Source of the DNA: Candidatus Omnitrophota bacterium
GTDB lineage: Bacteria > Omnitrophota > Gorgyraeia > Pluralincolimonadales > Pluralincolimonadaceae
NCBI GenBank assembly: GCA_041653595.1
Contig: JBAZFB010000005.1
Span: forward strand, 32,075 to 96,074
Reading direction: 5' to 3'
Length of the DNA stretch: 64,000 nucleotides
A program made the translations under genes and the position numbers. Shown here piece after piece: positions 3,025 to 19,824 of this stretch (the stretch's first letter is position 1; each line of letters starts with the position of its first letter). The notes under the pieces are model-generated. The model saw only the letters and a program-made list of their open reading frames with translations. It was not told the DNA's origin and ran no database searches.

Positions 3025-3031
3025 GGGAAGG

Positions 3032-3934: not shown

Positions 3935-3935
3935 T

Positions 3936-4904
3936 ATGCCAAAGGTAAGCGTAGTTATACCCGCATATAACTGCGAAAGGTTCATAGCTGCCGCCGTCAA
4001 TAGCGTGCTGGGGCAGTCTTATAAAGATTACGAATTGATCGTCGTGAATGACGGCTCGACGGATTCCACGGAAAATGCCCTTTCCGAATTCCGTTCAAGG
4101 ATCACCTATATATACCAAAAGAACGGGGGCCCGGCAAATGCCAGGAACACGGGAGTTTTAGCCGCGAAGGGGGAGTATGTGGCATTTTTGGACCAGGATG
4201 ACGCGTGGCTGCCCGATAAGCTGCGGATGCAAATCGATCTTTTTGAGAAGAAGGGGTCGTTGGGCCTTGTGTATGCCGACGAATACATGTTAAAAGACAG
4301 TTCCTTTGACATTTACGGCCCCGAGAACTTGCGGACTTTTCAATTCAGGCCCCCGCACAGGGGAAAAGTCTTCAAATACCTGTTTGCGCAAAATTTCATT
4401 CCCACATCTTCGGTGATGGCGCGAAAAGAGTGTTTTAGCAAAGTCGGCCTGTTCAACCCGGCGCTTGTCCCGATAGAGGACTACGACAGATGGCTGAGGA
4501 TCGCGGCTTTTTACGAGGTCGATTTTATCGACAGGCCTTTAGTGAGATACAGGGACCACGCCGCCACATTCCGAAAGGACGACGTAAGGACTTTTACCAA
4601 TATCGTCAATACCCTTAAGGGTGTTATCGCGGATTACCCGGATCTCAACGGCCTCATCGACAGGAGGGGAAGAGGGGAGCTGTCGAGGTTCCATGTTATT
4701 TTAGGAAGAAGGCATTTCCGCAGGAATGACCCGGGAAAAGCGCGGGAAAATTTTAAGTCCGCATTGAAGGTGTCGGGATTTCCGTCCTTCATTTTGTATG
4801 TTTTCATGTCCCCCGCTTATGCGCACCTCAGGGGAATATTCATTAAACTGGCATCAAGGTTCCGGCTGCGCATCAGGCACACCCGAAGGAAGGTAAATAC
4901 ATGA
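3936..4904 (+). CDS. Glycosyltransferase family 2
   Basis: VSVVIPAYNCERFI...ELIVVNDGSTDST...FLDQDDAW (GT2 DXD motifs). Confidence 0.85.
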   Translation: MPKVSVVIPAYNCERFIAAAVNSVLGQSYKDYELIVVNDGSTDSTENALSEFRSRITYIYQKNGGPANARNTGVLAAKGEYVAFLDQDDAWLPDKLRMQIDLFEKKGSLGLVYADEYMLKDSSFDIYGPENLRTFQFRPPHRGKVFKYLFAQNFIPTSSVMARKECFSKVGLFNPALVPIEDYDRWLRIAAFYEVDFIDRPLVRYRDHAATFRKDDVRTFTNIVNTLKGVIADYPDLNGLIDRRGRGELSRFHVILGRRHFRRNDPGKARENFKSALKVSGFPSFILYVFMSPAYAHLRGIFIKLASRFRLRIRHTRRKVNT

Positions 4905-5833
4905 AAAAAGTCTTAGTCACGGGAGTCAGCGGTTTTACGGGAAGGTATTTTGTCGATCTCGCCGGCAAGATGAGGCCGGGGACGGTGAAGATCTTCGGGG
5001 TAGATAAAAAGTGTTTCCCGGGCAGCCCGGAGAATTTTAAATTCATAAGATCGGACCTCTTGGACAAGGGGAGCATCTCGAAGATCATAGGCGATACACG
5101 GCCCGATTATATTTTGCACCTATCGGCATTGCTTTTCAGCAAGGATCATGAAGACCTGCTGAAATATAACGTACTTGCGACGAAGAACATCTTTGACGCA
5201 GTGATCGAGAAGGGGTTATCTCCACGAATATTGGTTATCGGCACCTCCGGCGAATATGGGATAAGCAGCCGGAATATACCGCTGAAAGAGACAGGCCCTT
5301 TAGCGCCTATAACGCCTTACGGCCTCAGTAAGGCGGCTCAGACGCTTTTGGCGCTGCAATACCATCAAGGATACGGCTTGGACATAGTCATCGCGCGGCC
5401 TTTTAACCTGATAGGCCCGGGCCAGACATCACAGCTGGTTTGCGGTTCGATCGTCAACCAGATCAAGGATATGGGCCCGAAAGGGCGCAGGAAAGGCAGA
5501 TTGCTGATAGGGAACCTTCATACCAGCAGGGATTTTATAGACGTAAGGGACGCGGTCAGGGCTTATTGGATGCTTATGGCATGCAAGAAACCGGTCGCGG
5601 GGGAGATATTTAACGTAGGCAGCGGGAAACCGCATTCGGTGCGGGAGATCGTGAAGATTCTTTCCGGCCTTTGCGGAAGGAAATTTTCGGTCGAGCAGCG
5701 GAAAGACAAGGTCATGAAGAAAGACATACCGGCGCAGACAGCGGATATTACCAAGATCAAGGCATTGACGGGATGGAAACCGGAGATCCCGATAGGCGCA
5801 TCCCTTATGGATATGTACCTTAATACGCCGTGA
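4901..5833 (+). CDS. NAD-dependent epimerase/dehydratase family protein (GDP-/UDP-sugar epimerase or reductase)
   Basis: VLVTGVSGFTGRYF Rossmann motif and a PYGLSKAAQTLL (YxxxK catalytic) block. An ATGA overlap joins it to the upstream gene. Confidence 0.8.
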   Translation: MKKVLVTGVSGFTGRYFVDLAGKMRPGTVKIFGVDKKCFPGSPENFKFIRSDLLDKGSISKIIGDTRPDYILHLSALLFSKDHEDLLKYNVLATKNIFDAVIEKGLSPRILVIGTSGEYGISSRNIPLKETGPLAPITPYGLSKAAQTLLALQYHQGYGLDIVIARPFNLIGPGQTSQLVCGSIVNQIKDMGPKGRRKGRLLIGNLHTSRDFIDVRDAVRAYWMLMACKKPVAGEIFNVGSGKPHSVREIVKILSGLCGRKFSVEQRKDKVMKKDIPAQTADITKIKALTGWKPEIPIGASLMDMYLNTP

Positions 5834-7008
5834 TGGATATCGCTATCGTGACTCCCACGCTGAATTACGGCGGCGGGGAGAGACAAGTTGAATTTCTGGC
5901 GTCAGGGTTGGCCGGCAGCGGGCACTCGGTAAGAGTCTACTGTTTCTTCGACGACGGCCCGATAGCGTACAGGTTGGCCGGAAAAGGCATAAAGGTCCAC
6001 AGGCTATATAACCGGGCCGTCACCGGGGCCGGTCCTGGGAAAAAAGTCGGCGCGCCCGCGGAAGACACCGGCGTTTTCAGGAAAAGCGGCGATACCGTCG
6101 ACAGGTTAAGGCGGCTTGCCAACGAATGCCTCGCGGCTTTAAAATTATTTGCCGCCTTTGCGAAAAAAAGGCCGGATGTCGTCCATCTATACCAGAACCA
6201 GACCAAGATGGCTGTCCTTGCCGGCAGGATGGCCGGCGTAAAAAGGATAGTCTATACCGAAACGTCCCTTATCGGGGATTGGCTTTCGCCTTCCCAATTG
6301 TCGGTTATGAGGTTTTTTTGGAGGCGATGTGATGCTATAATAGCCCTCTCGGAATCCATGAAACGGCATATGGTAGCCCTCGGCGCCGCGGTTACGGGAA
6401 AAGTATACGTCGTACCGACCATGCTCCCTTCTCCCGGAAAGAATGAGATAAAGCCCGTTGAGGGGAAGAGGGATGTAACCGTAGGCATAGTCGGAAGGCT
6501 TACCCCGGAAAAGGGGCACGTATTTTTTTTAAAGGCCGCCGAGTTGATAAATAAACAACGCAGTAATATCAAATTCATTATCGCGGGGCAGGGCTATCTG
6601 AAGAACGAGCTAAGCGTCCTCATCGAAAAAAACGGCCTGGCCGCAAATACAGAGCTTACCGGCGCGTTTAAGGATATCTCCGATATTATGTGCCGCATCG
6701 ATATACTTGTGCTTTCTTCCCTGACAGAGGGAGCGCCGTTGGTCCTGCTGGAAGGCATGGCTTACGGCAAACCTGTAGTCGCCGCCAATGTGGGGGGAGT
6801 AAGCGAACTGGTAGTTGAAGGCAAAACGGGTTTTTTGGTCGCTCCTAAAGACCCTGAGGCATTGGCTGATGCCATACTTAAGCTTGCCGGGGATACGCAA
6901 ATGAGGAAGAGATTCGCTGAGGCAGCGATCAACCGGTTCACGGAGAGATATTCCTCCGGGAAGCTTATCCCGGAAATAGAATCGATATACCGCGGAGGCA
7001 CGAATTAA
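5833..7008 (+). CDS. Glycosyltransferase family 4 (GT-B, Glycos_transf_1)
   Basis: C-terminal EGAPLVLLEGMAYGKPVVAANVGGVSELV is the EX7E motif of retaining GT4 enzymes. Confidence 0.85.
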   Translation: MDIAIVTPTLNYGGGERQVEFLASGLAGSGHSVRVYCFFDDGPIAYRLAGKGIKVHRLYNRAVTGAGPGKKVGAPAEDTGVFRKSGDTVDRLRRLANECLAALKLFAAFAKKRPDVVHLYQNQTKMAVLAGRMAGVKRIVYTETSLIGDWLSPSQLSVMRFFWRRCDAIIALSESMKRHMVALGAAVTGKVYVVPTMLPSPGKNEIKPVEGKRDVTVGIVGRLTPEKGHVFFLKAAELINKQRSNIKFIIAGQGYLKNELSVLIEKNGLAANTELTGAFKDISDIMCRIDILVLSSLTEGAPLVLLEGMAYGKPVVAANVGGVSELVVEGKTGFLVAPKDPEALADAILKLAGDTQMRKRFAEAAINRFTERYSSGKLIPEIESIYRGGTN

Positions 7009-7009
7009 A

Positions 7010-7705
7010 ATGAAGGTATCCGTCATTATACCTGTTTATAACGAAGCAAAGACAATAAAAGAGATCTTGAAAAAAGTCACGGATAGCGATGTCGTCGACG
7101 AGATAATCATAGTCGACGATTTTTCTAAGGACGATACCATGAAGATACTGGAAAGCCTGTCCCTTAAAGGGGTGAAGATATATTCTCATGATAAAAACCG
7201 CGGAAAGGGAGCGGCTATCCGTACAGGCCTCAAAAATGCGTCCGGCGACATAATAATTTTCCAGGATGCGGACTTAGAATATGATCCGGGGGATTATCCT
7301 AGGCTCGTGAAACCCATCAAAGAAGGCAAAGCGGATGTTGTATATGGTTCGAGGTTCCTGAATAGAAAAGACCTTTTCCATTGCAAAAAGGTCTTTTATC
7401 TGACGCATTTTATAGGAAATAAATTTCTTAATTTTATGGTGATGCTTCTTTACGGGGCAAGACTTACAGATATGGAGACTTGTTATAAGGTCATAAAAAA
7501 AGAGATATTGAACGGAATAGACTTAACTGCCAGGGGATTCGAAATAGAGCCTGAAATAACCGCAAAATTGCTGAGAAAAGGGGTAAAAATATACGAGGTC
7601 CCCATTTCCTATGTTCCGAGAGATTATCAGGAAGGCAAAAAGATCTCATGGCGGGACGGCTTAAAGGCATTATATGTGCTCGTAAAATACAGGGTGGGGA
7701 AATAG
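7010..7705 (+). CDS. Polyprenyl-phosphate sugar synthase, dolichol-phosphate-mannose synthase (DPM1)-like GT2
   Basis: MKVSVIIPVYNE...EIIIVDDFSKDDT...FQDADLEYDP. The short (231-aa) soluble GT2 architecture is typical of DPM1/ArnC/GtrB-like enzymes. Confidence 0.7.
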   Translation: MKVSVIIPVYNEAKTIKEILKKVTDSDVVDEIIIVDDFSKDDTMKILESLSLKGVKIYSHDKNRGKGAAIRTGLKNASGDIIIFQDADLEYDPGDYPRLVKPIKEGKADVVYGSRFLNRKDLFHCKKVFYLTHFIGNKFLNFMVMLLYGARLTDMETCYKVIKKEILNGIDLTARGFEIEPEITAKLLRKGVKIYEVPISYVPRDYQEGKKISWRDGLKALYVLVKYRVGK

Positions 7706-8407
7706 ATGCCCAAAGTCGTTTTTGATACGCTTACTTTCATGTCAAGGCTCGAGCGTTTGAAGTCCTGGTTTTACAAAAAGATCGAGCCATACCTCGGAGA
7801 GAGGATCCTGGAGGCGGGATGCGGGACCGGGAACCTGACTTCTTACCTGTCGGGCAAACAGCTGGTGCTGGCAGTAGACAATGACTCCGACATGCTGGAT
7901 GAATGCAGGAGCAGGTTTTCGGATAATCCGAACGTAAAATTCCTAAGATACGACTTAACCGACCCGTCGATAACAAAGCTTTCGGAAAATAACCTGGATA
8001 CGGTCGTTTGCGTCAATACCCTCGAACACATAAAGGATGACGAGGCGGTTTTGAGGAATTTCAATTCCGTATTAAGCGAAGGCGGCACCCTTATCTTGCT
8101 GGTACCCGCCTTCCAATCTTTATACTGCAGCCTTGACAGGGCGGCAGGCCACTACAGGAGGTACAGCCTGCCAGAGGTATCGGAAAAGATAGAAAAATGC
8201 GGTTTTACCGTCGATAAGAAGATGTATTTTAATTTTTTCGGGCTGATCGGGTGGTTCTTCAACGGGAAGGTCTTGAAAAAAGAAAAGATCTCCACCAGGC
8301 TGTTGAGGATGTTTAATTTCTTGACTCCGTTGCTGGATTTTTTCGAGAACCTGATAGGGCCTCCTATAGGCTTATCCATCATATTGGTATGCAGGAAGAG
8401 GGAATGA
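7706..8407 (+). CDS. Class I SAM-dependent methyltransferase
   Basis: ILEAGCGTGNL (motif I GxGxG) and VLEHI...LKPGG-like downstream motifs. Confidence 0.8.
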   Translation: MPKVVFDTLTFMSRLERLKSWFYKKIEPYLGERILEAGCGTGNLTSYLSGKQLVLAVDNDSDMLDECRSRFSDNPNVKFLRYDLTDPSITKLSENNLDTVVCVNTLEHIKDDEAVLRNFNSVLSEGGTLILLVPAFQSLYCSLDRAAGHYRRYSLPEVSEKIEKCGFTVDKKMYFNFFGLIGWFFNGKVLKKEKISTRLLRMFNFLTPLLDFFENLIGPPIGLSIILVCRKRE

Positions 8408-9861
8408 AGGTCTTATTTTTCCACAGGAACGCGGAATGGATGGGGATCGAATATCTTTCGAGCGCCCTGAAGAGGGCGGGGCACGACACCGAACTGCTCT
8501 TCGACCCCGGTTCCGGCGACGTGGAGTACAAGTTTAATATCATTGAAAGGTATTTCGACGTTTCCGGTAAAATGATAAAAAAGGCGAAGGCCTATAAACC
8601 CGACCTCATAGCGTTCTCTTGTTTGACCAATTTATACCCCTGGGTCTCCAAGATGGCTTCCCTGCTGAAGAAAGAAATGGCTGTGCCTATCATTGCGGGA
8701 GGCCTTCATCCCACCATTCTGCCTGAGTTCGTCATAAAAAACCCCGATATAGACATGATATGCGTCGGTGAAGGCGAAGAGGCCCTGGTAGAATTGGCGA
8801 ATAGCATGCAAAACGGTAAGATAGACTATTCGATAAAAAATATCTGGTTCAAGAAGGACGGGGAGATCGTCCGGAACCCGCCGAGGCCCCTGATGCAAGA
8901 CCTGGACTCCCTGCCTTTCCCGGACAAGGATATGTTCAGGCGGTACGGATGTTTTTCGGACAGGCTTTACGTCATGACCGGCAGGGGATGCCCGTACCAA
9001 TGCACATATTGTTTCAATTCTTACTACAGGAAATTGTTGAACCAGCCGGGCCATTCTTATACCCGCCGCAGGAGCGTCGGAAGGGTGATAGAAGAGCTTA
9101 AATATTTTAAGTCCAGGTACCGCATCAAGGAGGTCTTCTTCTATGACGATGTCTTCACAATAAATGACGAATGGATCAAGGACTTTGCCGCCAGGTATAA
9201 GAAGGAGATAGGCTTGCCTTTCAAGGTCCTGGTGCATCCCAAAAATGTAAAAAAAGACATTATGATACTCTTGAAAGAAGCGGGGTGTATTTATGTGGAT
9301 ATCGGCTTGGAGTCCGGGAGCGAGGATGTAAGGTATAAATTGCTGAAAAGGAACATGAGCAACGACGATATCATTAATACGGCCAGGGTCCTGAAGGAGG
9401 TAGGGATCAAGTTCTGCACATTGAACATAGTCGGTTTCCCGACCGAGACGACCGAACAGATGTGGGAGACTTATGAGTTAAATAGGAAGATAAAACCCGA
9501 CGGGACCATCGTGTCGATTTTTTACCCCTTTCCGAAAACAGAGCTGGCGGATTTCTGCGCTGAACGCGGGTTCATAAAAGAAGGCGAATATGAAAAGATC
9601 TGTAACGGCGAGGGAGGGTATAAACAGGGGTCTCTTATCAGGGATATAGACGAGAAAGAGGCCTTGAGGCTGCAAGTGTTGATCCCTTTCCTGACGAGAA
9701 TGCCGGCGTTTTTGCACCCAGCGATCAAGAGGATCCCGATCAACGGCTTCACCAGGATCATTTCCATACCGTTCCTTTCCGTTCCCAGGAACGCCTATAT
9801 ACGCATTAAGGAATCTTTGGTCATGTTCGTGAAATCCCATTGGAATTACCTGTGGGTATGA
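8404..9861 (+). CDS. B12-binding domain-containing radical SAM protein (paralog 1)
   Basis: N-terminal B12-binding-like Rossmann region (KPDLIAFSCLT...IIAGGLHPT) followed by GRGCPYQCTYC (CxxxCxxC). ATGA overlap with the upstream methyltransferase. Confidence 0.85.
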   Translation: MKVLFFHRNAEWMGIEYLSSALKRAGHDTELLFDPGSGDVEYKFNIIERYFDVSGKMIKKAKAYKPDLIAFSCLTNLYPWVSKMASLLKKEMAVPIIAGGLHPTILPEFVIKNPDIDMICVGEGEEALVELANSMQNGKIDYSIKNIWFKKDGEIVRNPPRPLMQDLDSLPFPDKDMFRRYGCFSDRLYVMTGRGCPYQCTYCFNSYYRKLLNQPGHSYTRRRSVGRVIEELKYFKSRYRIKEVFFYDDVFTINDEWIKDFAARYKKEIGLPFKVLVHPKNVKKDIMILLKEAGCIYVDIGLESGSEDVRYKLLKRNMSNDDIINTARVLKEVGIKFCTLNIVGFPTETTEQMWETYELNRKIKPDGTIVSIFYPFPKTELADFCAERGFIKEGEYEKICNGEGGYKQGSLIRDIDEKEALRLQVLIPFLTRMPAFLHPAIKRIPINGFTRIISIPFLSVPRNAYIRIKESLVMFVKSHWNYLWV

Positions 9862-9865
9862 ACAG

Positions 9866-11257
9866 ATGAATGTTTTACTGGTAAAGCCCTATAACCTTAG
9901 CGATCATATCCAGCCTTCCCTGGGCCTGGGCTATTTAGCCGAGTCGTGCAGGAGGGCCGGGCATAATGTGACGATACTCGATTGCATTAAAAAGGGCATG
10001 AAGGCGGATGCCTTGATCCATATGGTCAAAGAGGTAAAGCCCGACGTCGTCGGTTTCCAATGCTATACGTTCGATCTGAAATTCGTCAAGGAGGCCCTGG
10101 AAGGATGCAAAAACCTGAAGCCAGGCTTGATAACTGTCCTGGGCGGGCCGCATCCTTCTGCCGCCCCCGAAGAGAGCTTTAAGTATTTCGGCGCTTCTTT
10201 GGATTTTATCTTCGTAGGGGAAGCCGAAAAAGGCCTTCCTATGTTGCTGGAAAGGCTGGAAAGAAAAGGACCCCGGGACCTTTCGGATATCCCCGGGTTA
10301 GGATGGAGAGAGGACGGCCGTGTTCGCATAAATCCCCAGATATTCGTTGAAGACCTGGACAGCTTGGGCATGCCGGCATGGGACCTTATCCGGCCCGAGG
10401 AATATCCCGAATGCCAGCACGGCGCCGTTTTCCGGAAGTTCCCCATAGCGCCTATAATGGTCACCCGCGGTTGCCCTTTTTCCTGCACGTTTTGCGCGGG
10501 GAACATAATAGGGGGGAAAAAGATACGGAAACATAGCGTGGATTTCATTCTCGGGCAGATCAAGTATCTGTATGATAAGCATGGCATACGGGAATTCCAT
10601 ATTATAGATGATAACTTTACTTTTGACAGGGCCTACGCAAAGGAATTACTGCGGAAACTCGCCGATCTGCACTTGGATATAAGCTGGGCAACTCCAAACG
10701 GGGTCCGCATAGACTGTCTGGACGAAGAAATGCTTGTGCTGATGAAAAAAAGCGGCCTTTACCTTATTTCATTAGGGATAGAATCAGGCTCAGACAGGGT
10801 ACTTGCCTTAATGAAGAAAGGGACCACCACCGATAAGATACGGAAGGGGATAGATATGATCCGCCGGTTTAAGATAGATGTGGCGGGATTTTTTATCGTG
10901 GGCTTCCCGGGTGAGAAAGAAGAGGATATCAGGAAAACGATACGTTTTTCGCTTGATCTGGGTTTGATCAGGGCGAATTATTTTACATACCTGCCTTTTC
11001 CCGGCACGGCCAGTTATAAGAAATTGGCTTCAGGGGGGAAATTGGGCGGCGTTGACTGGGACAGGTTTTATTTTATGAGCGCCCCGTACGCGGGAGACGG
11101 CTTGAGCCAAAAACAGGTCAAATCTTTGCAGCGCGAAGCTTTCTTAAGATTTTATATGCGGCCGGGAATAATGATAAAGAACATATTGGCGATCAAGTCT
11201 CCGCGGCATTTCAAGTTCCTCCTGAAGAGGTTCTTCCATTGGGTCATCATGACATGA
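9866..11257 (+). CDS. B12-binding domain-containing radical SAM protein (paralog 2)
   Basis: KPDVVGFQCYT...VLGGPHPS B12-like region, then TRGCPFSCTFC (CxxxCxxC). Confidence 0.85.
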   Translation: MNVLLVKPYNLSDHIQPSLGLGYLAESCRRAGHNVTILDCIKKGMKADALIHMVKEVKPDVVGFQCYTFDLKFVKEALEGCKNLKPGLITVLGGPHPSAAPEESFKYFGASLDFIFVGEAEKGLPMLLERLERKGPRDLSDIPGLGWREDGRVRINPQIFVEDLDSLGMPAWDLIRPEEYPECQHGAVFRKFPIAPIMVTRGCPFSCTFCAGNIIGGKKIRKHSVDFILGQIKYLYDKHGIREFHIIDDNFTFDRAYAKELLRKLADLHLDISWATPNGVRIDCLDEEMLVLMKKSGLYLISLGIESGSDRVLALMKKGTTTDKIRKGIDMIRRFKIDVAGFFIVGFPGEKEEDIRKTIRFSLDLGLIRANYFTYLPFPGTASYKKLASGGKLGGVDWDRFYFMSAPYAGDGLSQKQVKSLQREAFLRFYMRPGIMIKNILAIKSPRHFKFLLKRFFHWVIMT

Positions 11258-12546
11258 AAAAAGTGATATCGATCGCCTTGGCGATCTTTGCCATTGCCCT
11301 GTTGCCGCGGCTTTATGTAGCCCTTTCTGACAGGCAGGTCTTTACACCCGACTCCATTTATTACAACGGACTCGCCGGGAACATTCTCGAGGGCAAGGGA
11401 TTCAGCGTGGGCGGGAAGCCTACCACTTTCAAAGAGCCGTTTTATCCTTTTTTTCTGGCGGCGGTATATCATATATTCGGCAATAACTACGCGGCCGTTA
11501 AAGTTATCCAGGCGATCATAGGCGCGCTGACATGCGTAATAATTTTTATGATAGCAAGGCGATTATTCGACGCCAAAACAGCCGTTTTGGGCGCGTTGAT
11601 AGGCTGTTTTTATCCGGCATTTATTAGAACTACGGAACTTATGATAACAGAGCTCCTTTATACTTTTTTGCTTATCTCTATCATATTCTTCCTTCTAAGG
11701 TATATCCAGGGCGGCGGTTATGGGAATTTGGCCTTTTGCGGGGCCGCGCTGGGGATAGCTTCGCTCACGCGCTCTGTTATAGTCCTGCTTCCCGTTTTTA
11801 TCCTTCTGTTGGCGGGAAAGATCTTTCTCTCCCAGGCCCGCAGCGTCAAAAAGTATATTATAAGCGCGGCCATCCTGCTTGCTTTTTTTATACTGCCGAT
11901 AGCTCCCTGGACCGTCAGGAACTGGAAAGTGGCCCATCGTTTTATCCCCATTTCCACCACGATGGGAATAGGGCTTTATAGCTCATATGTGCCCAAAGAG
12001 GGGAAATTATACGGCTTTATCGCCAGTGATGAAGTCGTGGAAAAGTCCAGGTCATTAGGATCTGAGGCCGCGCAAAGCGATTTCCTGGCAAAAGAGGCGC
12101 TAAAATATATAAAAAACAACCCTCTCCGCGTTCTAAAACTGGAGGTACTAAAAACCGTTTACTTCTGGAGCGTCTTCGATTGGGAGATCCTGGGTAACGG
12201 CGTGTATAATTACATGTATGCGTTCATTATGCCGTTTTTCATCTTAGGCATATTCGTTAATTCCAAAAGGTCCTGGGAGCTGGCCCCGGTCTATCTGCCT
12301 ATTATCTATTCTTTTTGCGTTTCTTTGGTGTTCTACGGTTCGCCGAGGTTCCGCCTGCCTATCGAGCCGTATATTATCATGATCGGCGCCGCGGGAATTT
12401 TCCATTTTATCCGCAGGTCCAGGAATAAGATTCTTCCCGGCCTATTAATAAGCGGTTACTTTATGTTGAACGTATGTTTTTATGCGGCCTCATATGAAAC
12501 AAAAGTGTTCTTCAGGTCCATATTCCAAAAGATAGGGCTCTGGTAG
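11254..12546 (+). CDS. GT-C fold membrane glycosyltransferase, ArnT/PMT (GT39/GT83-like, PMT_2) family
   Basis: Multi-TM protein with DSIYYNGLAGNILEGKGFS...FKEPFYPFFLAAV, the periplasmic-loop signature of polyprenyl-phosphate-sugar-dependent GT-C enzymes. ATGA overlap upstream. Confidence 0.7.
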   Translation: MKKVISIALAIFAIALLPRLYVALSDRQVFTPDSIYYNGLAGNILEGKGFSVGGKPTTFKEPFYPFFLAAVYHIFGNNYAAVKVIQAIIGALTCVIIFMIARRLFDAKTAVLGALIGCFYPAFIRTTELMITELLYTFLLISIIFFLLRYIQGGGYGNLAFCGAALGIASLTRSVIVLLPVFILLLAGKIFLSQARSVKKYIISAAILLAFFILPIAPWTVRNWKVAHRFIPISTTMGIGLYSSYVPKEGKLYGFIASDEVVEKSRSLGSEAAQSDFLAKEALKYIKNNPLRVLKLEVLKTVYFWSVFDWEILGNGVYNYMYAFIMPFFILGIFVNSKRSWELAPVYLPIIYSFCVSLVFYGSPRFRLPIEPYIIMIGAAGIFHFIRRSRNKILPGLLISGYFMLNVCFYAASYETKVFFRSIFQKIGLW

Positions 12547-13509
12547 ATGTTAAATGAAGAGTTGAAGGATAAATTGGCTTGTCCGGGCTGTTTGGGGGAC
12601 CTGTCATTCGGCGAAGGGGACTTTACTTGTAATAAGTGCCGCAGGAAATACCCTGTGGTCGACGGCATCCCTGTACTGATAAATGAGGACAAAAGCTTAT
12701 TCAGGATAAAGGATTTCCTGGGCAGGTCTTCGACTACCATCGAGTTAAGCGGCTTTAATAAAGGGTTACTGAGGAAGATATGGAGCAGGGTCACCCCGGA
12801 GCTTACCCTTAATATTTACAGCAAAAGAAATTTCAAAAAATTCATCAAAGAGGCATGTGATTCCGCGGCGAGGCCCGCGATATTGGTCATCGGGGGAGGA
12901 GTTTTGGGCTCGGGCCTGGCGGAAATTACCAAAAATGACAAAATAGTGCTCATCGAGAGCGACGTTTCTTTCGGCCCGCGGACGCAAATAATTTGCGACG
13001 CGCACAACCTGCCGTTCGTCGATTCTTCCCTCGACGGAGTGATCGCGCAGGCAGTGCTCGAGCATGTCACGGACCCGTACAAATGCGTAAGCGAGATATA
13101 CCGCGTCTTGAGACCGAAAGGGCTTGTGTATAGCGAAGTCCCTTTTATGCAGCAAGTCCATATGGGGAGATATGATTTTACAAGGTTCACCGATTTGGGG
13201 CACAGGAGGCTTTTTAGGAATTTCGAGGAGATAGAAAGGGGCGTAGCCGGAGGGCCTGCCAGCGCCCTGGCGTGGAGCCTCAGGTATTTTTTTGTGAGTT
13301 TTACCGACTCCCGTTTAATCAAAAAGATATTAAGCGCGTTCTCTATTTTCGCGTTCTTTTGGATCAAATATTTCGATTTTTGTCTTGTAAAAAAGGCCTC
13401 TTCCGCCGACGCGGCCGGAGGGTTCTATTTCCTCGGGAGAAAAAGCGATAAGACCGTGACGGATACCGAAATAGTCTCGCTCTATAAGGCAAAGGGCAAA
13501 GGATCTTGA
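12547..13509 (+). CDS. Trm112-like zinc-ribbon domain fused to a class I SAM methyltransferase
   Basis: N-terminal CPGC...CNKC...YPVVDGIPVL (Trm112/YcaR-like), then LVIGGGVLG and VLEHVTDPYKCVSEIYRVLRPKG methyltransferase motifs. Confidence 0.7.
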   Translation: MLNEELKDKLACPGCLGDLSFGEGDFTCNKCRRKYPVVDGIPVLINEDKSLFRIKDFLGRSSTTIELSGFNKGLLRKIWSRVTPELTLNIYSKRNFKKFIKEACDSAARPAILVIGGGVLGSGLAEITKNDKIVLIESDVSFGPRTQIICDAHNLPFVDSSLDGVIAQAVLEHVTDPYKCVSEIYRVLRPKGLVYSEVPFMQQVHMGRYDFTRFTDLGHRRLFRNFEEIERGVAGGPASALAWSLRYFFVSFTDSRLIKKILSAFSIFAFFWIKYFDFCLVKKASSADAAGGFYFLGRKSDKTVTDTEIVSLYKAKGKGS

Positions 13510-14924
13510 ATAAAATAGCGATATTTGCATATATTTTACTGGGGATCGCCCTCGGCTTTATTTTGACGTTTTATACCGCCGGTTTATTCGTTCTATCCCT
13601 TTTTTTGGCGTCACTGCTCGTAATAAAACTGTTTGTTAGAAAGGAATCTTCAGGTTTCCTGATAAAACTTTTCATCATAAGTTTTATCCTCAGGGCGGTA
13701 ATGTGCCTGGTCAATTATAATGTAGGCCTCGAGCCTCCTTTCTGGGGAGGAGATACCCAGCCTGACGCCGCAGTCTACAACGTTAACGCTTTTTATATCG
13801 CTCATTTGCTGAAGGATAATCCCGCGGAAGAAAGTCTTGCCAGGGCCAGGGACCCGTTCTTGGACAGGATGCTTGATAAGACGCGATACTTCCATGACAA
13901 CAGGCTGCCTGACCTCGGCGGATACCAATTCGACAGCAATGTTTTTGGGTTGGGGGTTTTGTATGCGTGGCTCGGCTATGCGCCGGTCGCGGCTAAAATG
14001 ACCAACAGCCTTATTTGCTGCTTAAGCATTATTCTCGTGTATTTGATCTCCCGCCGGCTCTTTGGAGAGGAGAAGCCCTCGCGTATCGCCGCCGTCATTT
14101 TTGCGTTCTTCCCGTCTATTTTCTACTGGTCTGTCACGGGTTTACGCGACAGCGTCAGTAATTTTTTGCTTTTGGCTTATTTATTATTCCTTGTCAAACT
14201 GATCGCGGAAAAGAAGTTTAAATATATATTCTGGGCCCTGTTTTTTATATATTTATCGAACCTCTTCAGGACTAAGTTATCAATATCATTATTGGCAGGA
14301 TTGGGCGTGGTTTCTGTATTCAGCCTTCTAAAAGCGCTTAAGGTAGGGAAAAACACTATTCTAAGGGTATCTTTGATCTTCGCCGTATATTTTATCTTAG
14401 TGTTTGTATTTGCGGATAGGACCGTGATAACCTCAAAGATCGTAAATACCGCTAATTTCATAGCCCGTGTTAACCTTGCCCAGGTCGTTTCTGAGGGGGC
14501 ATTCCATCCTTCTCAGACAAATTACAGGATATATTCAGATCTGGTTTACCAGCAGGGTAAGCTGACGCCCGGAGACGTCTTTTCTTTCGGATACCTGGCG
14601 ACTATCCTAAAAGCGATCTTATATTTTTTCTTTGCGCCGTTCCCGTTCGGGAACTGGACCTTGAGCTTCCTGCCTTTTTATCCGCAGGTCATTTATTGGT
14701 ATTTAATGGCCCCGTTCGCCGTAAGGGGATGGCTGCTTTTCTTAAAGAAAGATAAATATGCCTCGCTTGCCGTCACGGCTTTACTCTTGATACTTATCCT
14801 GCCTGCCGCTCTTTTCGAAAGCAATATAGGGACTGCTTTCCGGCATAAGGATATGTTTATGCCTGTCGCTTTCATGTTCGCGGCTTATGCCCTTACAAGA
14901 CAGCAGGCGGTCAATCGCTGCTAA
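13506..14924 (+). CDS. Polytopic membrane protein, GT-C-like (PMT_2/ArnT-like) glycosyltransferase or glycan polymerase
   Basis: More than 10 predicted TM helices. RRLFGEEKPSRIAAVIFAFFPSIFYWSVTGLRDS resembles the GT-C conserved region. TTG start with TTGA overlap. Confidence 0.5.
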   Translation: MNKIAIFAYILLGIALGFILTFYTAGLFVLSLFLASLLVIKLFVRKESSGFLIKLFIISFILRAVMCLVNYNVGLEPPFWGGDTQPDAAVYNVNAFYIAHLLKDNPAEESLARARDPFLDRMLDKTRYFHDNRLPDLGGYQFDSNVFGLGVLYAWLGYAPVAAKMTNSLICCLSIILVYLISRRLFGEEKPSRIAAVIFAFFPSIFYWSVTGLRDSVSNFLLLAYLLFLVKLIAEKKFKYIFWALFFIYLSNLFRTKLSISLLAGLGVVSVFSLLKALKVGKNTILRVSLIFAVYFILVFVFADRTVITSKIVNTANFIARVNLAQVVSEGAFHPSQTNYRIYSDLVYQQGKLTPGDVFSFGYLATILKAILYFFFAPFPFGNWTLSFLPFYPQVIYWYLMAPFAVRGWLLFLKKDKYASLAVTALLLILILPAALFESNIGTAFRHKDMFMPVAFMFAAYALTRQQAVNRC

Positions 14925-16120
14925 TGAAGAACATCCTGTATATAACTTATGACGGATTATTGGACCCGGTCGCGAAATCCCAGGTCTTGCCGTACCTGTC
15001 GGGATTGTCGAAAAAGGGATTTCTTGTTTCCGTCATCAGTTTTGAGAAGGAAAACAGGACAAGAACAGGAAAAGACGCTGACAGGACAAGGGCGGACCTG
15101 GAAAGAAATAACGTTTTTTGGAAAGCGTTAAAATACCACAAATCCCCGCCGGTCCCCGCGACTATTTTTGATATTATAACGGGTTTTTATTCGGCATTGT
15201 CGGGTCCCCGCAGGGACGATCTTGGGCTCATACACGCCAGGGGATACATTCCGGCCCTGTTGGGGGTTTCACTGAAATGGGTCAGCGGTAAAAAACTTAT
15301 ATTCGACATGCGGGGCTTTTGGCCGGACGAGAAAGTCGACGCGAAGGCCTGGAGGGAAGACAGCCCGATCTACGCTTTATTCAAGAAGATCGAAAGGATG
15401 CTCATAAACAGAAGCGACGAGATCGTTGTCTTGACCGTGGCCGCAGAAAAATACCTGAGGAAGGATTTCCCCGGGGCCGCAATTTCGGTAATCCCGTGCT
15501 GTGTAGATACCGGGCTCTTTGCGCCGAAACCGCGGGGGGATATCATACCCGATAAGGCAAAAGACAGGTTCATTTTGATATATTTAGGCAGCACGGGGAC
15601 CTTTTATGATCTGGACGGGATGGCCCTATTTTTTAAGGCCTTAAAAAACAAGAATCATAAGGCCTATTTCTGGCTGGTCACGAACTCGGCGGTCAAAGAT
15701 GTCGAAGGCGTCATGTTTGGACACGGTATAGACAGGAATGATTTTGCGGTAACCAATTTAGATTACAGGGATATCCCGTCTGCCTTATCAGGCTCGGACC
15801 TGTCCATAATGTTCTATAAACGCCGGCTTTCCTCTCGGGGTTGTTCCCCCATAAAGTTTGCCGAAAGCTTGTCTTGCGGCTTGCCCGTAGTCATTAATTC
15901 CGGAATCGGCGATACGGAGGAGTTCATAAACAAAGAAAAAGTAGGCGTGATCGCGGATGTTTCAAGCCCCGGAGGGGTCGAAAAGGCCGTCGAAAAAGCA
16001 TCGGAATTATTATCGGAAGGGGAAGACCTCAGTAAAAGATGCAGGTTTGCGGCGGAAAAATATTTTTCACTCGAATATGCAGTTGATAAGTACAGCATGA
16101 TTTATCGAAGGTTATTGTGA
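14924..16120 (+). CDS. Glycosyltransferase family 4
   Basis: GT-B architecture with a C-terminal FAESLSCGLPVVINSGIGDTEEFI (E-x7-E-like) motif. Confidence 0.75.
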   Translation: MKNILYITYDGLLDPVAKSQVLPYLSGLSKKGFLVSVISFEKENRTRTGKDADRTRADLERNNVFWKALKYHKSPPVPATIFDIITGFYSALSGPRRDDLGLIHARGYIPALLGVSLKWVSGKKLIFDMRGFWPDEKVDAKAWREDSPIYALFKKIERMLINRSDEIVVLTVAAEKYLRKDFPGAAISVIPCCVDTGLFAPKPRGDIIPDKAKDRFILIYLGSTGTFYDLDGMALFFKALKNKNHKAYFWLVTNSAVKDVEGVMFGHGIDRNDFAVTNLDYRDIPSALSGSDLSIMFYKRRLSSRGCSPIKFAESLSCGLPVVINSGIGDTEEFINKEKVGVIADVSSPGGVEKAVEKASELLSEGEDLSKRCRFAAEKYFSLEYAVDKYSMIYRRLL

Positions 16121-16121
16121 A

Positions 16122-17213
16122 ATGAGGATATTATTTTGGGTCCCATATCCGCACGAGGGAGCAAGCAACAGGTATAGGATAGAGCAGTACCTCCCTTATT
16201 TAAAAAAGGAAGGCATATCCGCCGACATCCATCCCTTTTGGAACAGCGCCGCATTCAAGGTTTTATATGAAAAGGGGAACTATTTAACGAAAATATTTTT
16301 CTTTTTAACGGGGACAGCCTACCGCTTTCTGGACATATTCCGGCTGCCCCGGTACGACGTCGTTTTTATACACAGAGAGGCTTTTCCGCTCGGCAGCTGT
16401 TTCTTCGAATCGGTTGTGAGTTTTGTCAGAAAACCGGTAATATTCGATTTTGATGACGCAATATTCCTGCCTTTTACCAGCCCGCAGAATAATTTTGTAG
16501 AAAAGTACAAAAAACCGCAGAAAATAGCCAAGATAGTGGAACTTAGCGACTACGTGATAGCCGGAAATGACTATCTGGCCGAATTTGCGCTGCGCCATAA
16601 CCGGTATGTTTCCGTGATACCCACTCCCGTCGATCTGGATAAGTATTATCCGGCCGCCAGGGACATCCGGGAAAAAGTGGTCGTTGGCTGGATAGGCAGC
16701 GTCACAACGATGGATTTCTTAAGACCGATGGCCGGCGTATTTGCGAAGTTATCGGAGCGGTTTCCCAATGTCGAATTTAAGATAGTCGGCGGGGATCTCG
16801 ATAACGGTAAAATTCCGGGCGTGATCTGCGTGCCATGGTCGCTTGAAGAAGAATTAAGCCAATTGAGGACGTTTGATATAGGGATAATGCCCATGCCGGA
16901 TAACGAATGGACAAGAGGGAAATGCGGGTTTAAGGCTATCCTGTATATGAGCATGGCAATACCTTCGGTATGCTCTCCGGTGGGCATGAACAAGGAGATA
17001 ATAGCGGACGGGGTTAACGGTTTCTTGGCTTATGACGAAGATCAATGGCTAAAAAAACTCACTCTATTGATCGAAGACTCCGGGCTTAGGAAGAGAACGG
17101 GGATTGAAGCGAAAAAGACGGTGGAAGAAAGATATTCGGTTAAGGTAAATGCGCCTAAATTTATAGCTGTTTTAAAAGAAGCTTATAATAAAAACAGGCA
17201 GGGCCAAATATAA
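16122..17213 (+). CDS. Glycosyltransferase family 4
   Basis: GT-B architecture with WIGSVTT...KAILYMSMAIPSVCSPVGMNKEII, typical of Glyco_trans_1-like enzymes. Confidence 0.75.
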   Translation: MRILFWVPYPHEGASNRYRIEQYLPYLKKEGISADIHPFWNSAAFKVLYEKGNYLTKIFFFLTGTAYRFLDIFRLPRYDVVFIHREAFPLGSCFFESVVSFVRKPVIFDFDDAIFLPFTSPQNNFVEKYKKPQKIAKIVELSDYVIAGNDYLAEFALRHNRYVSVIPTPVDLDKYYPAARDIREKVVVGWIGSVTTMDFLRPMAGVFAKLSERFPNVEFKIVGGDLDNGKIPGVICVPWSLEEELSQLRTFDIGIMPMPDNEWTRGKCGFKAILYMSMAIPSVCSPVGMNKEIIADGVNGFLAYDEDQWLKKLTLLIEDSGLRKRTGIEAKKTVEERYSVKVNAPKFIAVLKEAYNKNRQGQI

Positions 17214-19114
17214 TGTGCGGTATTTGCGGGATCGTCGATCATAGAGGGGGCGGTATTACCGGAGAAAAGACGATAAATGATATGTGCAGGGAATTGAGGC
17301 ACAGGGGCCCGGATGACGGGGGTATTTATCTGAACAGCGGGATGCCTTCCGTAGCCCTGGGCCATAGGAGACTAAGCATCATTGATCTGTCCCAGGCAGG
17401 CCACCAGCCGATGAGCAATGAGGACGGGTCGGTCCAGCTGGTCTTTAACGGAGAGATATATAATTACAAAGATCTAAAAGATGAACTGAAAATGAGAGGG
17501 CATATATTCAAGTCTGATTCAGACACCGAGGTCATGGTACATCTTTACGAGACTTACGGAGAGGAGTGCGTAAGGCATCTCCGCGGCATGTTTGCTTTTG
17601 CGGTATGGGATGAAAAAAAGAAAACCCTTTTTTTGGGGAGAGACAGGATAGGGAAAAAGCCGCTTCTTTATTGTCGATCAGGGAATATTTTTTGTTTTGG
17701 GTCTGAATTTTCATCAATTTTGGCAAGCGGTTTAATCAATAAAAGTATAAATCTCAAGGCGGTTAATTATTATATGAATTTCGGTTATGTGCCGGCCCCG
17801 TTCACGATCTATAACGGCATCTTTAAGCTTCCGGCGGCGCATACCTTGACATTGAAAGACGGAAATATCCGCCTGGAACGGTACTGGCAGGTTGATTATT
17901 CCGGCAAAATAAATATTTCGGAAGAAGAGGCCTCGGAGGAAGTCTTAAGATTGCTCAAAGAAGCGGTAAAAATCAGGTTATACAGCGATGTGCCCTTGGG
18001 GGCCTTCTTAAGCGGAGGAATCGACTCAAGCGCGGTAGTAGGCCTGATGAGCCAGGTATCCGGCGCTAAAGTAAAGACTTTTTCAATAGGTTTTGAGGAA
18101 TCCGATTACAACGAGCTTAAATACGCAAGGATGGTCGCGGGAAAATTCGCGACGGAACATCACGAGTTTATCGTGAAACCTAACGCACTTGAGATCCTTC
18201 CTTTGTTGGTAGAAAGGTACGGGGAACCTTATGCCGACTCCTCCTGTATACCTACTTATTACGTCTGCCGGGAGACAAGGCGGTTCGTGACGGTAGCCCT
18301 GAACGGCGACGGCGGCGACGAGGCATTCGGAGGGTATGAGAGATACCAGGCAATGCTGATCTCGGAAAACCTGCAAAAATTACCCATTTATTTAAGAAAC
18401 ATGATAAGCGGGTTAGCGGGCATCCTGCCCGATTCTGTAAACCAAAAAGATACGCTCAGGCGGTTAAAGAGATTTTTAGGCAGCGCGGGGCTGCCGGCGG
18501 GAGAGAGGTACCTGAGGTGGGCAGGTATCCTGGGGGAGGTCCGCCCGGATGAGTTGTATTCGGACGAGTTTTTAAAAGAGACCCGTTCAGCCGGTCCTTT
18601 AGCTATCCTGGAACCGTACTTAAACTGCCCCGGCAAACCGGATCTGCTGGACCGCCTTCTTTTGGCCGATACCTCGACGTACCTGCCCGATGACCTGCTG
18701 GTCAAGGTTGATATAGCCAGTATGGCTAACTCCCTCGAAGCAAGGTCTCCGTTCCTCGACCATAAACTCATCGAGTTCGCCGCAAAGCTGCCTTCCGATC
18801 TTAAGATCAGGGGGGCCGCAAAGAAATACATCCTGCGAAAGGCCGTCAAAGGGCTGCTTCCGGAAGAAAATATCCGCAGGAGAAAGATGGGGTTCGGCAT
18901 GCCGGTCGGGCAATGGTTCAGAGGGGAACTCAAAGGTTTCTTATGCGACACAGTGCTTTCCGCGGCCTCTCTTAAAAGGGGGTATTTTAAACCCGGTGCG
19001 GTAAAGAGGATGGTCGAAGACCATATCTCCGGGAAAAAAGATTACGCTTTCCAGTTATGGGCGATCTTGATGCTCGAATTGTGGCACAAAAAATTCATGG
19101 ATTCCGCGATATGA
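17213..19114 (+). CDS. asnB: Asparagine synthase (glutamine-hydrolysing) family amidotransferase
   Basis: MCGICGIV N-terminal nucleophile Cys2 (GATase type 2) and the SGGIDSS PP-loop ATP pyrophosphatase motif. Length 633 aa. Confidence 0.9.
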   Translation: MCGICGIVDHRGGGITGEKTINDMCRELRHRGPDDGGIYLNSGMPSVALGHRRLSIIDLSQAGHQPMSNEDGSVQLVFNGEIYNYKDLKDELKMRGHIFKSDSDTEVMVHLYETYGEECVRHLRGMFAFAVWDEKKKTLFLGRDRIGKKPLLYCRSGNIFCFGSEFSSILASGLINKSINLKAVNYYMNFGYVPAPFTIYNGIFKLPAAHTLTLKDGNIRLERYWQVDYSGKINISEEEASEEVLRLLKEAVKIRLYSDVPLGAFLSGGIDSSAVVGLMSQVSGAKVKTFSIGFEESDYNELKYARMVAGKFATEHHEFIVKPNALEILPLLVERYGEPYADSSCIPTYYVCRETRRFVTVALNGDGGDEAFGGYERYQAMLISENLQKLPIYLRNMISGLAGILPDSVNQKDTLRRLKRFLGSAGLPAGERYLRWAGILGEVRPDELYSDEFLKETRSAGPLAILEPYLNCPGKPDLLDRLLLADTSTYLPDDLLVKVDIASMANSLEARSPFLDHKLIEFAAKLPSDLKIRGAAKKYILRKAVKGLLPEENIRRRKMGFGMPVGQWFRGELKGFLCDTVLSAASLKRGYFKPGAVKRMVEDHISGKKDYAFQLWAILMLELWHKKFMDSAI

Positions 19115-19824
19115 AAAAATGCAGATACTGGCTGCTGGGCTGCGCAGCCGTTTTGGCCGTAACAGCGCTCCTCCTTAACCTGGAGGTCACGACCTTACAG
19201 GGAGTAAATTATAAAGTCCGCACCGTTAAGCTGCCTTTATACCTAAAATTACTGGATTTCTATGACAGGCATTATAATTATGGGGTCCTGGCGAAGAAGA
19301 TAGTCTCGGGCGCCAAAAGCGACGAAGATAAGGCGATGAAGATATTTGAATGGACACGCGCAAACATAAGGGACAATCCGAAGGAATTACCCATAATAGA
19401 CGATCATGTCTGGCATATCATTATAAGGGGATACGCGGTTGACGACCAGTTCCAGGATGTTTTTACCACCCTTTGTAACTACGCAAACATCAATTCCTTC
19501 TTTTATGACGTATATTCAGAAACGGGGGAGGGGAGGAAACCTTTGTCGTTCGTGAACTTAAGGGGTACGTGGGCCGTTTTTGACGTCTATAACGGCGTTT
19601 ATTTCGTGAACAAAAAAGGCCAGATAGCCGGCATTTCAGACTTATCCGGGGGAGACTGGAAAGCCGTCAGCGGCATTAAAAGAGATATCCCCGGTAACTA
19701 TGACAAGTTTTTCAAAAATTTAAATTCTATAAACTTTCAGAAATGGAGGCTAAGCAGGGGCGCGATCCAATCTCCGCTTAGGAGATTTATGTATTTCATG
19801 AAAAAACCGGTCAGCACGGACTAG
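19111..19824 (+). CDS. Hypothetical signal-anchored/secreted protein
   Basis: N-terminal hydrophobic segment WLLGCAAVLAVTALLL and no recognised catalytic motifs. ATGA overlap with asnB suggests co-translation. Confidence 0.5.
   Translation: MKKCRYWLLGCAAVLAVTALLLNLEVTTLQGVNYKVRTVKLPLYLKLLDFYDRHYNYGVLAKKIVSGAKSDEDKAMKIFEWTRANIRDNPKELPIIDDHVWHIIIRGYAVDDQFQDVFTTLCNYANINSFFYDVYSETGEGRKPLSFVNLRGTWAVFDVYNGVYFVNKKGQIAGISDLSGGDWKAVSGIKRDIPGNYDKFFKNLNSINFQKWRLSRGAIQSPLRRFMYFMKKPVSTD

Follow-up and report, generated by a model that had tools for sequence, protein, structure and literature searches.

The subject of this study is a stretch of 64,000 nucleotides of DNA (the window) from a Candidatus Omnitrophota bacterium and, in particular, the genes that lie between positions 7010 and 14924 of that stretch. 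There are three glycosyltransferases (GTs) in this region: one soluble enzyme of family GT2 and two membrane-embedded enzymes of the GT-C type. A sequence-only reading of the DNA had named these three genes as a module for lipid-linked glycosylation in the periplasm, and all three are present at the coordinates it gave, on the + strand. The core logic of that description, a GT2 that supplies GT-C enzymes, has been retained here; the description had, however, passed over four genes that stand between the three it named, i.e., two methyltransferases and two enzymes of the cobalamin (B12)-binding radical S-adenosylmethionine (SAM) type (B12-rSAM). These may tailor the sugar that is to be transferred.

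The open reading frames (ORFs) of the window were annotated by Pfam and NCBIfam scans. The order of the genes, all on the + strand, is as follows: a soluble DPM1/ArnC-type GT2, a putative polyprenyl-phosphate monosaccharide synthase of 231 amino acids (7010–7705); a class I SAM-dependent methyltransferase of 233 amino acids, a candidate tailoring enzyme (7706–8407); the B12-rSAM enzymes rSAM1, of 490 amino acids (8389–9861), and rSAM2, of 463 amino acids (9866–11257); GT-C1, a polytopic glycosyltransferase of the GT-C fold and PMT_2 type, of 430 amino acids (11254–12546); a SAM methyltransferase of 320 amino acids with an N-terminal Trm112-like zinc ribbon (12547–13509); and GT-C2, a distant PMT_2-type GT-C homologue of 472 amino acids (13506–14924). 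The junctions between these genes are gaps of 0–4 nt or overlaps of 1–19 nt and are compatible with a single operon, and from 604 to 19824 every gene is co-directional and either overlaps its neighbour or is separated from it by 6 nt or less. The co-operonic layout that had been proposed is plausible in view of this tight packing; a scan of 500–20400 for consensus promoters and terminators was uninformative, since the counts equalled the shuffled expectation.

Enzymes of the module

The GT2 is recognised by the Pfam family Glycos_transf_2 (PF00535) with 131.6 bits over residues 4–167. Its best relative of known structure is the Dol-P-Man synthase of P. furiosus (5mlz; E 1.5e-24, with residues 1–210 aligned), followed by three ArnC entries (E about 4e-16, with about 210 residues aligned). 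The GT2 has a catalytic domain of the GT-A fold, and its DXD motif, D86-A-D88, aligns with the DAD of 5mlz; a GSRF motif is also present. Processive and other GT2s in the PDB match just the N-terminal 90–150 residues or so, and the possibility that the enzyme is a processive synthase was rejected on this ground, which bears out the earlier assignment to the DPM1/ArnC type. The three best NCBIfam matches were AglJ (137 bits against a cut-off of 325), PpgS (78 against 370) and ArnC (72.5 against 529). Because these equivalog cut-offs are far from being reached, the GT2 is taken to belong to the DPM1/ArnC-type family without being orthologous to any named enzyme. Prediction of hydrophobic segments gave none for the GT2, i.e., it has no transmembrane segment. 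From its relatives, it is predicted to charge polyprenyl phosphate with a sugar.

The start of GT-C1 agrees with that of gene callers, and the recorded protein, from a Candidatus Omnitrophota metagenome-assembled genome in which it is encoded on a contig of 111.6 kb, is 100% identical over its 430 amino acids. The match to PMT_2 (PF13231) is clear (69.7 bits against a cut-off of 26.1). A sequence search of the PDB with GT-C1 and GT-C2 gave nothing useful, and for this reason the folds of both were predicted. The AlphaFold2 (AF2) model of GT-C1 is of high confidence (pLDDT 95.8, pTM 0.93), and its 41 best Foldseek matches in the PDB are all GT-C-type proteins, 30 of them at E ≤ 1e-3, with a TM-score, normalised to the query, of about 0.55. 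These matches include STT3, AglB, ArnT (which is among the top six), PglB, PMT, ALG9/12/3, AftA/B, Emb and glycosylphosphatidylinositol enzymes. The loop that the sequence-only reading had described, DSxxY...GxGF, is real and reads P32-D33-S34-I35-Y36-Y37 ... G47-K-G-F50. Residue D33, with which the helix after the first transmembrane helix begins in the model, is invariant among 28 homologues and nearly invariant among 67, and is accompanied by further conserved residues (E133, W219/R222/N223 and R365/R367/E371). When the modelled helices are combined with the positive-inside rule, the loops rich in lysine and arginine fall on the opposite face from the conserved polar residues, so that the conserved residues, including D33, are predicted to face the periplasm. 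GT-C1 ends in transmembrane helices: its sole soluble part in the model is a periplasmic insertion of about 90 residues (228–316), and the 430 residues of the model do not include a large soluble C-terminal domain for acceptor binding of the kind found in ArnT, PMT and STT3.

The match of GT-C2 to PMT_2 is marginal (29.2 bits against 26.1), and its AF2 model is mediocre (pLDDT 74), with AglB and PglB as its top seven Foldseek matches at weak E values of 4e-3 to 9e-2. The comparison of families is more telling: hhalign relates the GT-C2 family to the GT-C1 family with a probability of 97.2% (E 3.4e-11) over 342 columns. This profile alignment pairs the invariant D87 of GT-C2 (in TQPDAAVY) with D33 of GT-C1, and GTAFRHKD with GSPRFRLP. 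The conserved motifs of GT-C2 are GGDTQPDAxxY (containing D83 and D87), FFPSIxYWS and GTAFRHKD, and the protein has two extra N-terminal helices. Both GT-Cs have a conserved aspartate just after the first canonical transmembrane helix. A word-indexed search found 15 relatives of GT-C2, and a full scan with a hidden Markov model (HMM) found 5389 cluster representatives (E ≤ 1e-3), mostly of 440–480 amino acids. An identity as Wzy or WaaL was considered and rejected, as WaaL appears only at rank 30 with a probability of 0.08 in Foldseek and hhalign ties the protein to the PMT_2 type. On the strength of these profiles, GT-C2 is accepted as a divergent PMT_2-type GT-C, in keeping with the class it had been given from the sequence.

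The enzymes between the glycosyltransferases are of a different nature. The methyltransferase of 7706–8407 matches Methyltransf_25/11/12 at about 62–64 bits. Both rSAMs have an N-terminal B12-binding domain (PF02310; 69 bits in rSAM1 and 72 in rSAM2) followed by a radical-SAM core (PF04055; 99 and 97 bits, respectively) with the CxxxCxxC motif, in the forms GCPYQCTYC and GCPFSCTFC; in rSAM2 the cysteines of the motif are C203-x3-C207-x2-C210. No hydrophobic segment was predicted in the methyltransferases or in the rSAMs. The nearest solved structures for the rSAMs are the glutamine C-methyltransferase 9ccb (QCMT), TokK and CysS, and also the dehydratase AprD4. As these are C-methylases together with a dehydratase, methylation is the likeliest chemistry, with others possible. 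Among NCBIfam models, HpnJ is the best match of rSAM1 (138 bits) and the third-best of rSAM2 (153 bits), against a cut-off of 577.6. There are at least 1696 relatives of rSAM2 at E ≤ 1e-60, all of which carry generic or wrong names.

Linkage in related loci

Related loci (here given L numbers) were approached in three ways: from contigs that carry GT-C1 homologues, by a scan of one genome per species with an alignment of 28 GT-C1 sequences, and by a reciprocal search that began from rSAM2 orthologues in metagenomes. The Omnitrophota contigs with GT-C1 homologues have a recurrent order, which is a short GT2, one or two B12-rSAMs, the GT-C1 orthologue and further PMT_2 proteins. In L002 the order is that of the window, with the GT2 at 60% identity, rSAM1 at 70%, rSAM2 at 70% and GT-C1 at 47%. 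L086 has a GT4 (2950–4113), a methyltransferase (4067–5038, between the GT4 and the GT2), the GT2, a methyltransferase, rSAM1, rSAM2, GT-C1, a GT-C2-like gene and then unrelated genes. Orthologues of rSAM1 (70–72% identity) occupy the equivalent position in L002, L056 and L086.

The scan of species representatives yielded 47 loci in Omnitrophota, Acidobacteriota (Pyrinomonadaceae), Nitrospinota, Glassbacteria, Gemmatimonadota, Planctomycetota, Desulfobacterota, Oligoflexia and WOR-3, of which the 39 with at least 1 kb upstream of the GT-C1 homologue served as the denominator for adjacency. In 15 of the 39, the gene immediately upstream of the GT-C1 homologue is a GT2 orthologue (≥40% identity); in a further five such an orthologue lies no more than 3.5 kb away, the intervening gene being typically a homologue of the 7706–8407 methyltransferase. 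Loci with this linkage occur in Omnitrophota, Acidobacteriota, Nitrospinota, Planctomycetota and others. A methyltransferase stands between the GT2 and GT-C1 in L034, L044, L047 and L049, and a B12-rSAM does so in L002, L005 and L010. Homologues of the 7706–8407 methyltransferase (28–50% identity) are found between or beside the GT2 and GT-C1 in those same four loci, which are from Pyrinomonadaceae, and also in L009, L070, L074 and L086. Across many phyla, the genes for the GT2 and GT-C1 form a genuinely conserved pair, and within the present locus the conserved module is GT2, methyltransferase, B12-rSAM, B12-rSAM and GT-C1.

The reciprocal test was made with 80 metagenomic loci that carry rSAM2 orthologues of 40–70% identity, 56 of which have enough upstream sequence. 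In 26 of these 56, a GT2 orthologue is directly upstream of the rSAM2 orthologue, and overlapping start and stop codons are frequent at the junction (e.g. L058, L078, L129). Orthologues of the GT2 with 43–60% identity adjoin GT-C1 homologues and rSAM2 orthologues alike. Partners within 8 kb were counted for the 30 well-flanked loci, i.e., those with at least 3 kb on either side. Because home-made GT-C HMMs detect too few members of a divergent GT-C-like subfamily that stands beside many rSAM2 genes, the count was based on an iterative search. Of the 30 loci, 27 have at least one of the two partners, a GT2 orthologue or a GT-C-like protein, near the rSAM2 orthologue: both in 13, the GT2 alone in five and the GT-C-like protein alone in nine, leaving three with neither. 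In metagenomes, rSAM2 is the most faithful neighbour of the GT2 orthogroup.

The second GT-C has other companions. In L003 and L004 the GT-C2 orthologues are followed by the same series of GT4, GT4, AsnB-type amidotransferase and transglutaminase-like genes as in the window (14924–19824, + strand, where the second of the series is a GT4-like protein), whereas the gene upstream of them is not conserved. The genes at the position of 12547–13509 in L003 and L004 are not homologous to that of the window (a methyltransferase of 233 amino acids in L003 is only a weak match); because the methyltransferases found there are not orthologous, this position is regarded as variable. Since GT-C2 travels with the GT4–GT4–AsnB–transglutaminase-like block, the region from 7010 to 14924 holds two conserved units and not one. 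Of the trio that the sequence-only reading had proposed, the pair of GT2 and GT-C1 is upheld, whereas GT-C2 does not belong specifically with the GT2. Genes like GT-C1 and GT-C2 are nonetheless often found in one locus.

Several of the related loci have features of their own. In L078 (9387–9734), L083 (9520–9939) and L129 (9368–9772), a conserved single-pass protein of 115–139 amino acids, with the motif RAVYYLYPR and no Pfam match, is encoded between the rSAM2 orthologue and a divergent GT-C-like protein of 461–465 amino acids with the motif PIESYDA; this small protein is absent from the window. L007 (8001–13664; identical with L027), which is outside a large glycan cluster, encodes a PMT_2 protein, an MttB-like methyltransferase, a short GT2, a small membrane protein of family DUF2304 and a B12-rSAM; the record is labelled ‘archaeon’ yet has genes for sigma-54 activators. 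In L001 (5919–15797), from the Omnitrophota chromosome CP070837, an orthologue of GT-C1 with 58% identity follows a DegT aminotransferase, a GFO oxidoreductase, a formyltransferase and a different short GT2, and two further PMT_2 proteins and a B12-rSAM are encoded downstream of it.

The surrounding glycan locus

The region from about 600 to 38000 is a single, densely packed array of surface-glycan genes of about 37 kb, in which all genes are on the + strand except for one GT4 (19821–20951). The first 600 bases of the window encode the end of a cyclase-like protein. The array then begins with a HAD phosphatase, a LIC13510-like surface-carbohydrate protein, an RmlD-like reductase, a GT2, an NDP-sugar epimerase/dehydratase and a GT4 (5830–7008, + strand), the last of which is directly upstream of the short GT2 described above. 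The LIC13510-like protein (1297–3024; 575 amino acids) is a weak match to TIGR04326, the model for Leptospira surface carbohydrate biosynthesis of the LIC13510 type (55 bits against a cut-off of 250), and its exact 575-residue product has no record in the protein collection.

After position 14924 there are two GT4s, the AsnB-type amidotransferase and the transglutaminase-like protein, and then further GTs, among which is a third pairing of a B12-rSAM with a methyltransferase. This pair (21042–23374) consists of a B12-binding radical-SAM enzyme of 501 amino acids followed by a class I methyltransferase of 274 amino acids, with no short GT2 adjacent, and may tailor another sugar of the glycan. 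The amidotransferase is TIGR03108-like (667 bits against a cut-off of 817). The transglutaminase-like ORF as listed (19057–19824) shares 58 nt with the 3′ end of the amidotransferase gene; the true start probably lies further downstream, the L003 orthologue having 235 amino acids.

The array ends with a WecA-like initiating transferase, a Wzy_C ligase-like protein, two GT9 heptosyltransferases and a GmhB-like HAD. At 28357–30147 there is an unusual fusion of 596 amino acids, the N-terminal half of which is a WecA/MraY-type phosphotransferase (PF00953), while the C-terminal half matches CoA_binding_3 and the N-terminal 225 or so positions of WcaJ/WbaP-type models, without their catalytic end. 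By its annotated content, the array is a surface-glycan locus of the lipopolysaccharide (LPS)/O-antigen type. Downstream of it are housekeeping genes (UDG, PriA, def, fmt, glycolysis and Opp), and beside the glycolysis genes gap, pgk and tpi there are tandem paralogues of the galactose-1-phosphate uridylyltransferase/HIT type (44311–46344; 343 and 332 amino acids).

Proposed mechanism and known systems

The mechanism proposed here is a periplasmic glycosylation module, similar to the three-component systems, in which the sugar is tailored in the cytoplasm by SAM-dependent and B12-rSAM enzymes, probably through methylation. Its probability is put at about 50%. Judging by homology, the soluble GT2 would use a nucleotide sugar to load a single sugar onto polyprenyl phosphate on the cytoplasmic side of the membrane. 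The class I methyltransferase and the two B12-rSAMs would then modify this sugar, most probably by O- and C-methylation, as gene linkage and the logic of the cofactors suggest. Tailoring is placed in the cytoplasm, before export of the sugar, because these enzymes are soluble and SAM-dependent and the rSAMs also depend on a reductant. A flippase, for which the ORFs scanned in the window give no candidate, would carry the lipid-linked sugar over the membrane, and GT-C1, with a site built around D33, would pass it to a periplasmic acceptor. The context makes the glycan produced by the surrounding locus the most probable acceptor. GT-C2 would carry out a separate periplasmic transfer.

The product of the GT2 is favoured as the substrate of the rSAMs because rSAM is tied to a GT2 of the polyprenyl-phosphate type and not to nucleotide-sugar genes, and because the gene order runs from GT2 through rSAM to GT-C, which is suggestive but no proof. 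It is a tentative proposal, held at well below even odds, that rSAM2-type enzymes C-methylate or rearrange the polyprenyl-phosphate-linked monosaccharide by radical chemistry. Should it be true, glycan assembly would gain its first radical-SAM step at the lipid-carrier stage, and lipid-level radical tailoring would give donors that are inaccessible as nucleotide sugars and that can be installed only in the periplasm, by GT-Cs. To our knowledge, the modifications of lipid-linked sugars described so far are deformylation and epimerisation; a cobalamin radical-SAM step in such modules would be a new class of chemistry for the synthesis of glycan donors. It would also predict unusual C-methylated or rearranged sugars at the cell surface, and would give a testable function to a large orphan family of B12-rSAMs, in which Omnitrophota and other uncultured phyla are rich. 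Periplasmic glycosylation that draws on polyprenyl-phosphate sugars is the basis of O-antigen diversity, of polymyxin resistance (Arn) and of the assembly of the mycobacterial wall.

Several observations weigh against the proposed mechanism. The flippase families GtrA, MATE, SMR/ArnEF and Wzx-like have no member among the ORFs of at least 150 amino acids between 604 and 55682; the glycan locus itself (600–38000) has no recognisable Wzx, ABC exporter, GtrA, MATE or SMR flippase, and its genes are packed too tightly to leave room for a flippase gene. Possibly, the flippase is encoded elsewhere in the genome; a Polysacc_synt flippase is present in the related loci L003 and L005. The GT2, GT-C1 and the rSAMs have no equivalog-level match in NCBIfam, all cut-offs being missed widely. 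B12-rSAM genes occur in just 6 of the 39 species-representative GT-C1 loci, and because the GT2 and GT-C1 are adjacent without an rSAM in many loci, the rSAM is to be regarded as an accessory and not as part of the core. The GT-C-like partners in many rSAM2 loci are of the divergent subfamily with the PIESYDA motif, which matches PMT_2 weakly (20–30 bits) and has a weak profile relation to GT-C1 and GT-C2. The position of the 21042–23374 pair, away from any GT2, implies that such enzymes are also common in the locus for other reasons. Finally, the substrate of the rSAMs could be a nucleotide sugar instead of a lipid-linked one, as the gene order is compatible with either.

The foremost of the alternatives, itself unlikely, is plain side-chain glycosylation of the three-component type, in which the GT2 makes a polyprenyl-phosphate sugar that the GT-Cs add unmodified to a glycan. 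The methyltransferases and rSAMs would be neighbours without a part in this process and would act on nucleotide sugars or elsewhere in the O-antigen. The region from 7010 to 14924 would then be an ordinary GT2/GT-C glycosylation module. Most loci outside Omnitrophota do have the GT2 and GT-C1 directly adjacent without an rSAM, the window does have another rSAM–methyltransferase pair that is not beside a GT2, and Omnitrophota glycan loci are generally rich in B12-rSAMs. Against mere neighbourhood are the frequency with which rSAM2 directly adjoins the GT2 (the 26 of 56 loci, often with overlapping codons), which is far above the expectation for a chance neighbour, and the occurrence of the rSAM2–GT2 neighbourhood outside large glycan loci, as in L007. 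The rSAMs and the GT2 could also be partners without the GT-Cs. In the hopanoid pathway, HpnI, a GT2, and HpnJ, a B12-rSAM, together form a cyclitol on a sugar that is attached to a lipid, and by analogy the GT2–rSAM pair might make the head group of a stand-alone glycolipid, the GT-Cs being unrelated. This is the least probable of the readings weighed here. The HpnJ matches of rSAM1 and rSAM2, and the five of 30 well-flanked loci that have a GT2 orthologue and no detectable GT-C-like protein, are in its favour; yet the HpnJ scores are far under the cut-off, the window has no hopanoid genes, and a GT-C-like protein accompanies rSAM2 in 22 of those 30 loci, 13 of which also have the GT2.

The remaining alternatives concern the acceptor. 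A glycan or LPS acceptor is favoured over proteins because of the LPS/O-antigen context, and an acceptor in lipid A or the core is kept open because the genes in front of the GT-C1 orthologue of CP070837 (for an aminotransferase, oxidoreductase, formyltransferase and short GT2) form an Arn-like layout. If GT-C1 were to decorate lipid A phosphates or core sugars, in the manner of ArnC/ArnT, the effect would be to alter the charge of the surface. ArnC is indeed the second-best solved relative of the GT2, ArnT is in the top six structural matches of GT-C1, and LPS core genes lie in the same locus. Against this are the lack of an equivalog-level match to ArnT or ArnC in NCBIfam, the absence of an aminotransferase, formyltransferase or deformylase near the module in the window, and the absence from GT-C1 of the C-terminal periplasmic domain of ArnT; this reading is rated below plain side-chain glycosylation. 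Protein O-glycosylation, which the sequence-only reading had suggested, is improbable and finds no support here. In this case one or both GT-Cs would act like Pmt enzymes and put the sugar on Ser/Thr residues of proteins that are secreted or lie in the membrane. It is true that the Pfam family is named after protein mannosyltransferases, that the structures matched by fold include those of PMT and oligosaccharyltransferases, and that the ligase-like and amidotransferase genes of the locus resemble the PEP-CTERM-associated TIGR03097 and TIGR03108, below their cut-offs. However, the PMT_2 family also holds many enzymes with glycan or lipid acceptors, neither an acceptor protein nor a MIR domain nor a large luminal domain is present, and the surroundings, with their WecA-like, Wzy_C ligase-like, GT9 and GmhB-like genes, are those of an LPS/O-antigen-type locus.

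The general GT2/GT-C scheme is ordinary; the integration of B12-rSAMs into it is undescribed so far. A literature search found no paper that connects B12-rSAM enzymes to polyprenyl or undecaprenyl phosphate, to the sugars carried on polyprenyl phosphate or to GT-C enzymes, and nothing relevant on glycosylation in Omnitrophota; a 2026 review of class B radical-SAM enzymes does not mention the terms glycan, polysaccharide or polyprenyl. The rSAMs share with the class B radical-SAM methylases and their relatives (QCMT/MgmA 9ccb, TokK, CysS, AprD4; HpnJ) the order of domains, B12-binding before radical SAM, and the CxxxCxxC motif. The substrate of HpnJ is said to be a lipid-attached sugar. We know of no characterised class B member that has been linked to polyprenyl-phosphate sugars or GT-C enzymes.

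Among systems that pair a synthase with a GT-C, Dol-P-Man synthase (DPM1, or PfDPMS, 5mlz) with PMT or ALG GT-C mannosyltransferases is akin to the present one in that PfDPMS is the best solved relative of the GT2, with the DAD and GSR motifs aligned, and GT-C1 shares the PMT/ALG fold. The GT2 lacks, however, the four C-terminal transmembrane helices of PfDPMS, and nothing at the Omnitrophota locus points to mannose or to protein acceptors. The likeness to ArnC and ArnT, i.e., the undecaprenyl-phosphate-L-Ara4FN synthase and the lipid A aminoarabinose transferase, lies in the alignment of the GT2 with ArnC over about 210 residues and in the high place of ArnT among the structural matches. The Arn pathway also modifies its sugar while lipid-linked, as ArnD deformylates it. 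The differences are that the ArnC score is 72 against a cut-off of 529, that there is no match to an ArnT model, that no homologues of ArnA, ArnB or ArnD are adjacent, and that GT-C1 has no C-terminal periplasmic domain. In mycobacteria, PpgS (Rv3631) and Rv3779 form a polyprenyl-phosphate-GalNAc pathway that decorates a cell-envelope polysaccharide. This system, like the present one, pairs a short GT2 of about 230 amino acids and no transmembrane segment with a PMT_2-type GT-C, and PpgS is the second NCBIfam match of the GT2; yet the score of 78 bits is far under the cut-off of 370, the window has no homologue of the GtrA-like Rv3632, and the mycobacterial system has no rSAM or methyltransferase genes.

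The three-component systems (GtrA/GtrB/GtrC for O-antigen glucosylation, and those for pentofuranoses) resemble the Omnitrophota locus in that a synthase and a GT-C are co-encoded in a surface-glycan locus. They differ in that the Omnitrophota locus has no flippase gene, that its synthase is a GT2 of 231 amino acids without transmembrane segments, in contrast to GtrB, which has transmembrane helices, and to the phosphoribosyl pyrophosphate-dependent synthase, and that its GT-Cs have no C-terminal soluble domains. To the basic scheme the Omnitrophota locus adds two SAM methyltransferases, two B12-rSAMs and a second GT-C. In the pentofuranose systems, epimerases are auxiliary enzymes that diversify the polyprenyl-phosphate-sugar donor (Kelly et al. 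2024; PMC11127046), and these epimerases provide a precedent for the auxiliary tailoring of a lipid-linked donor.

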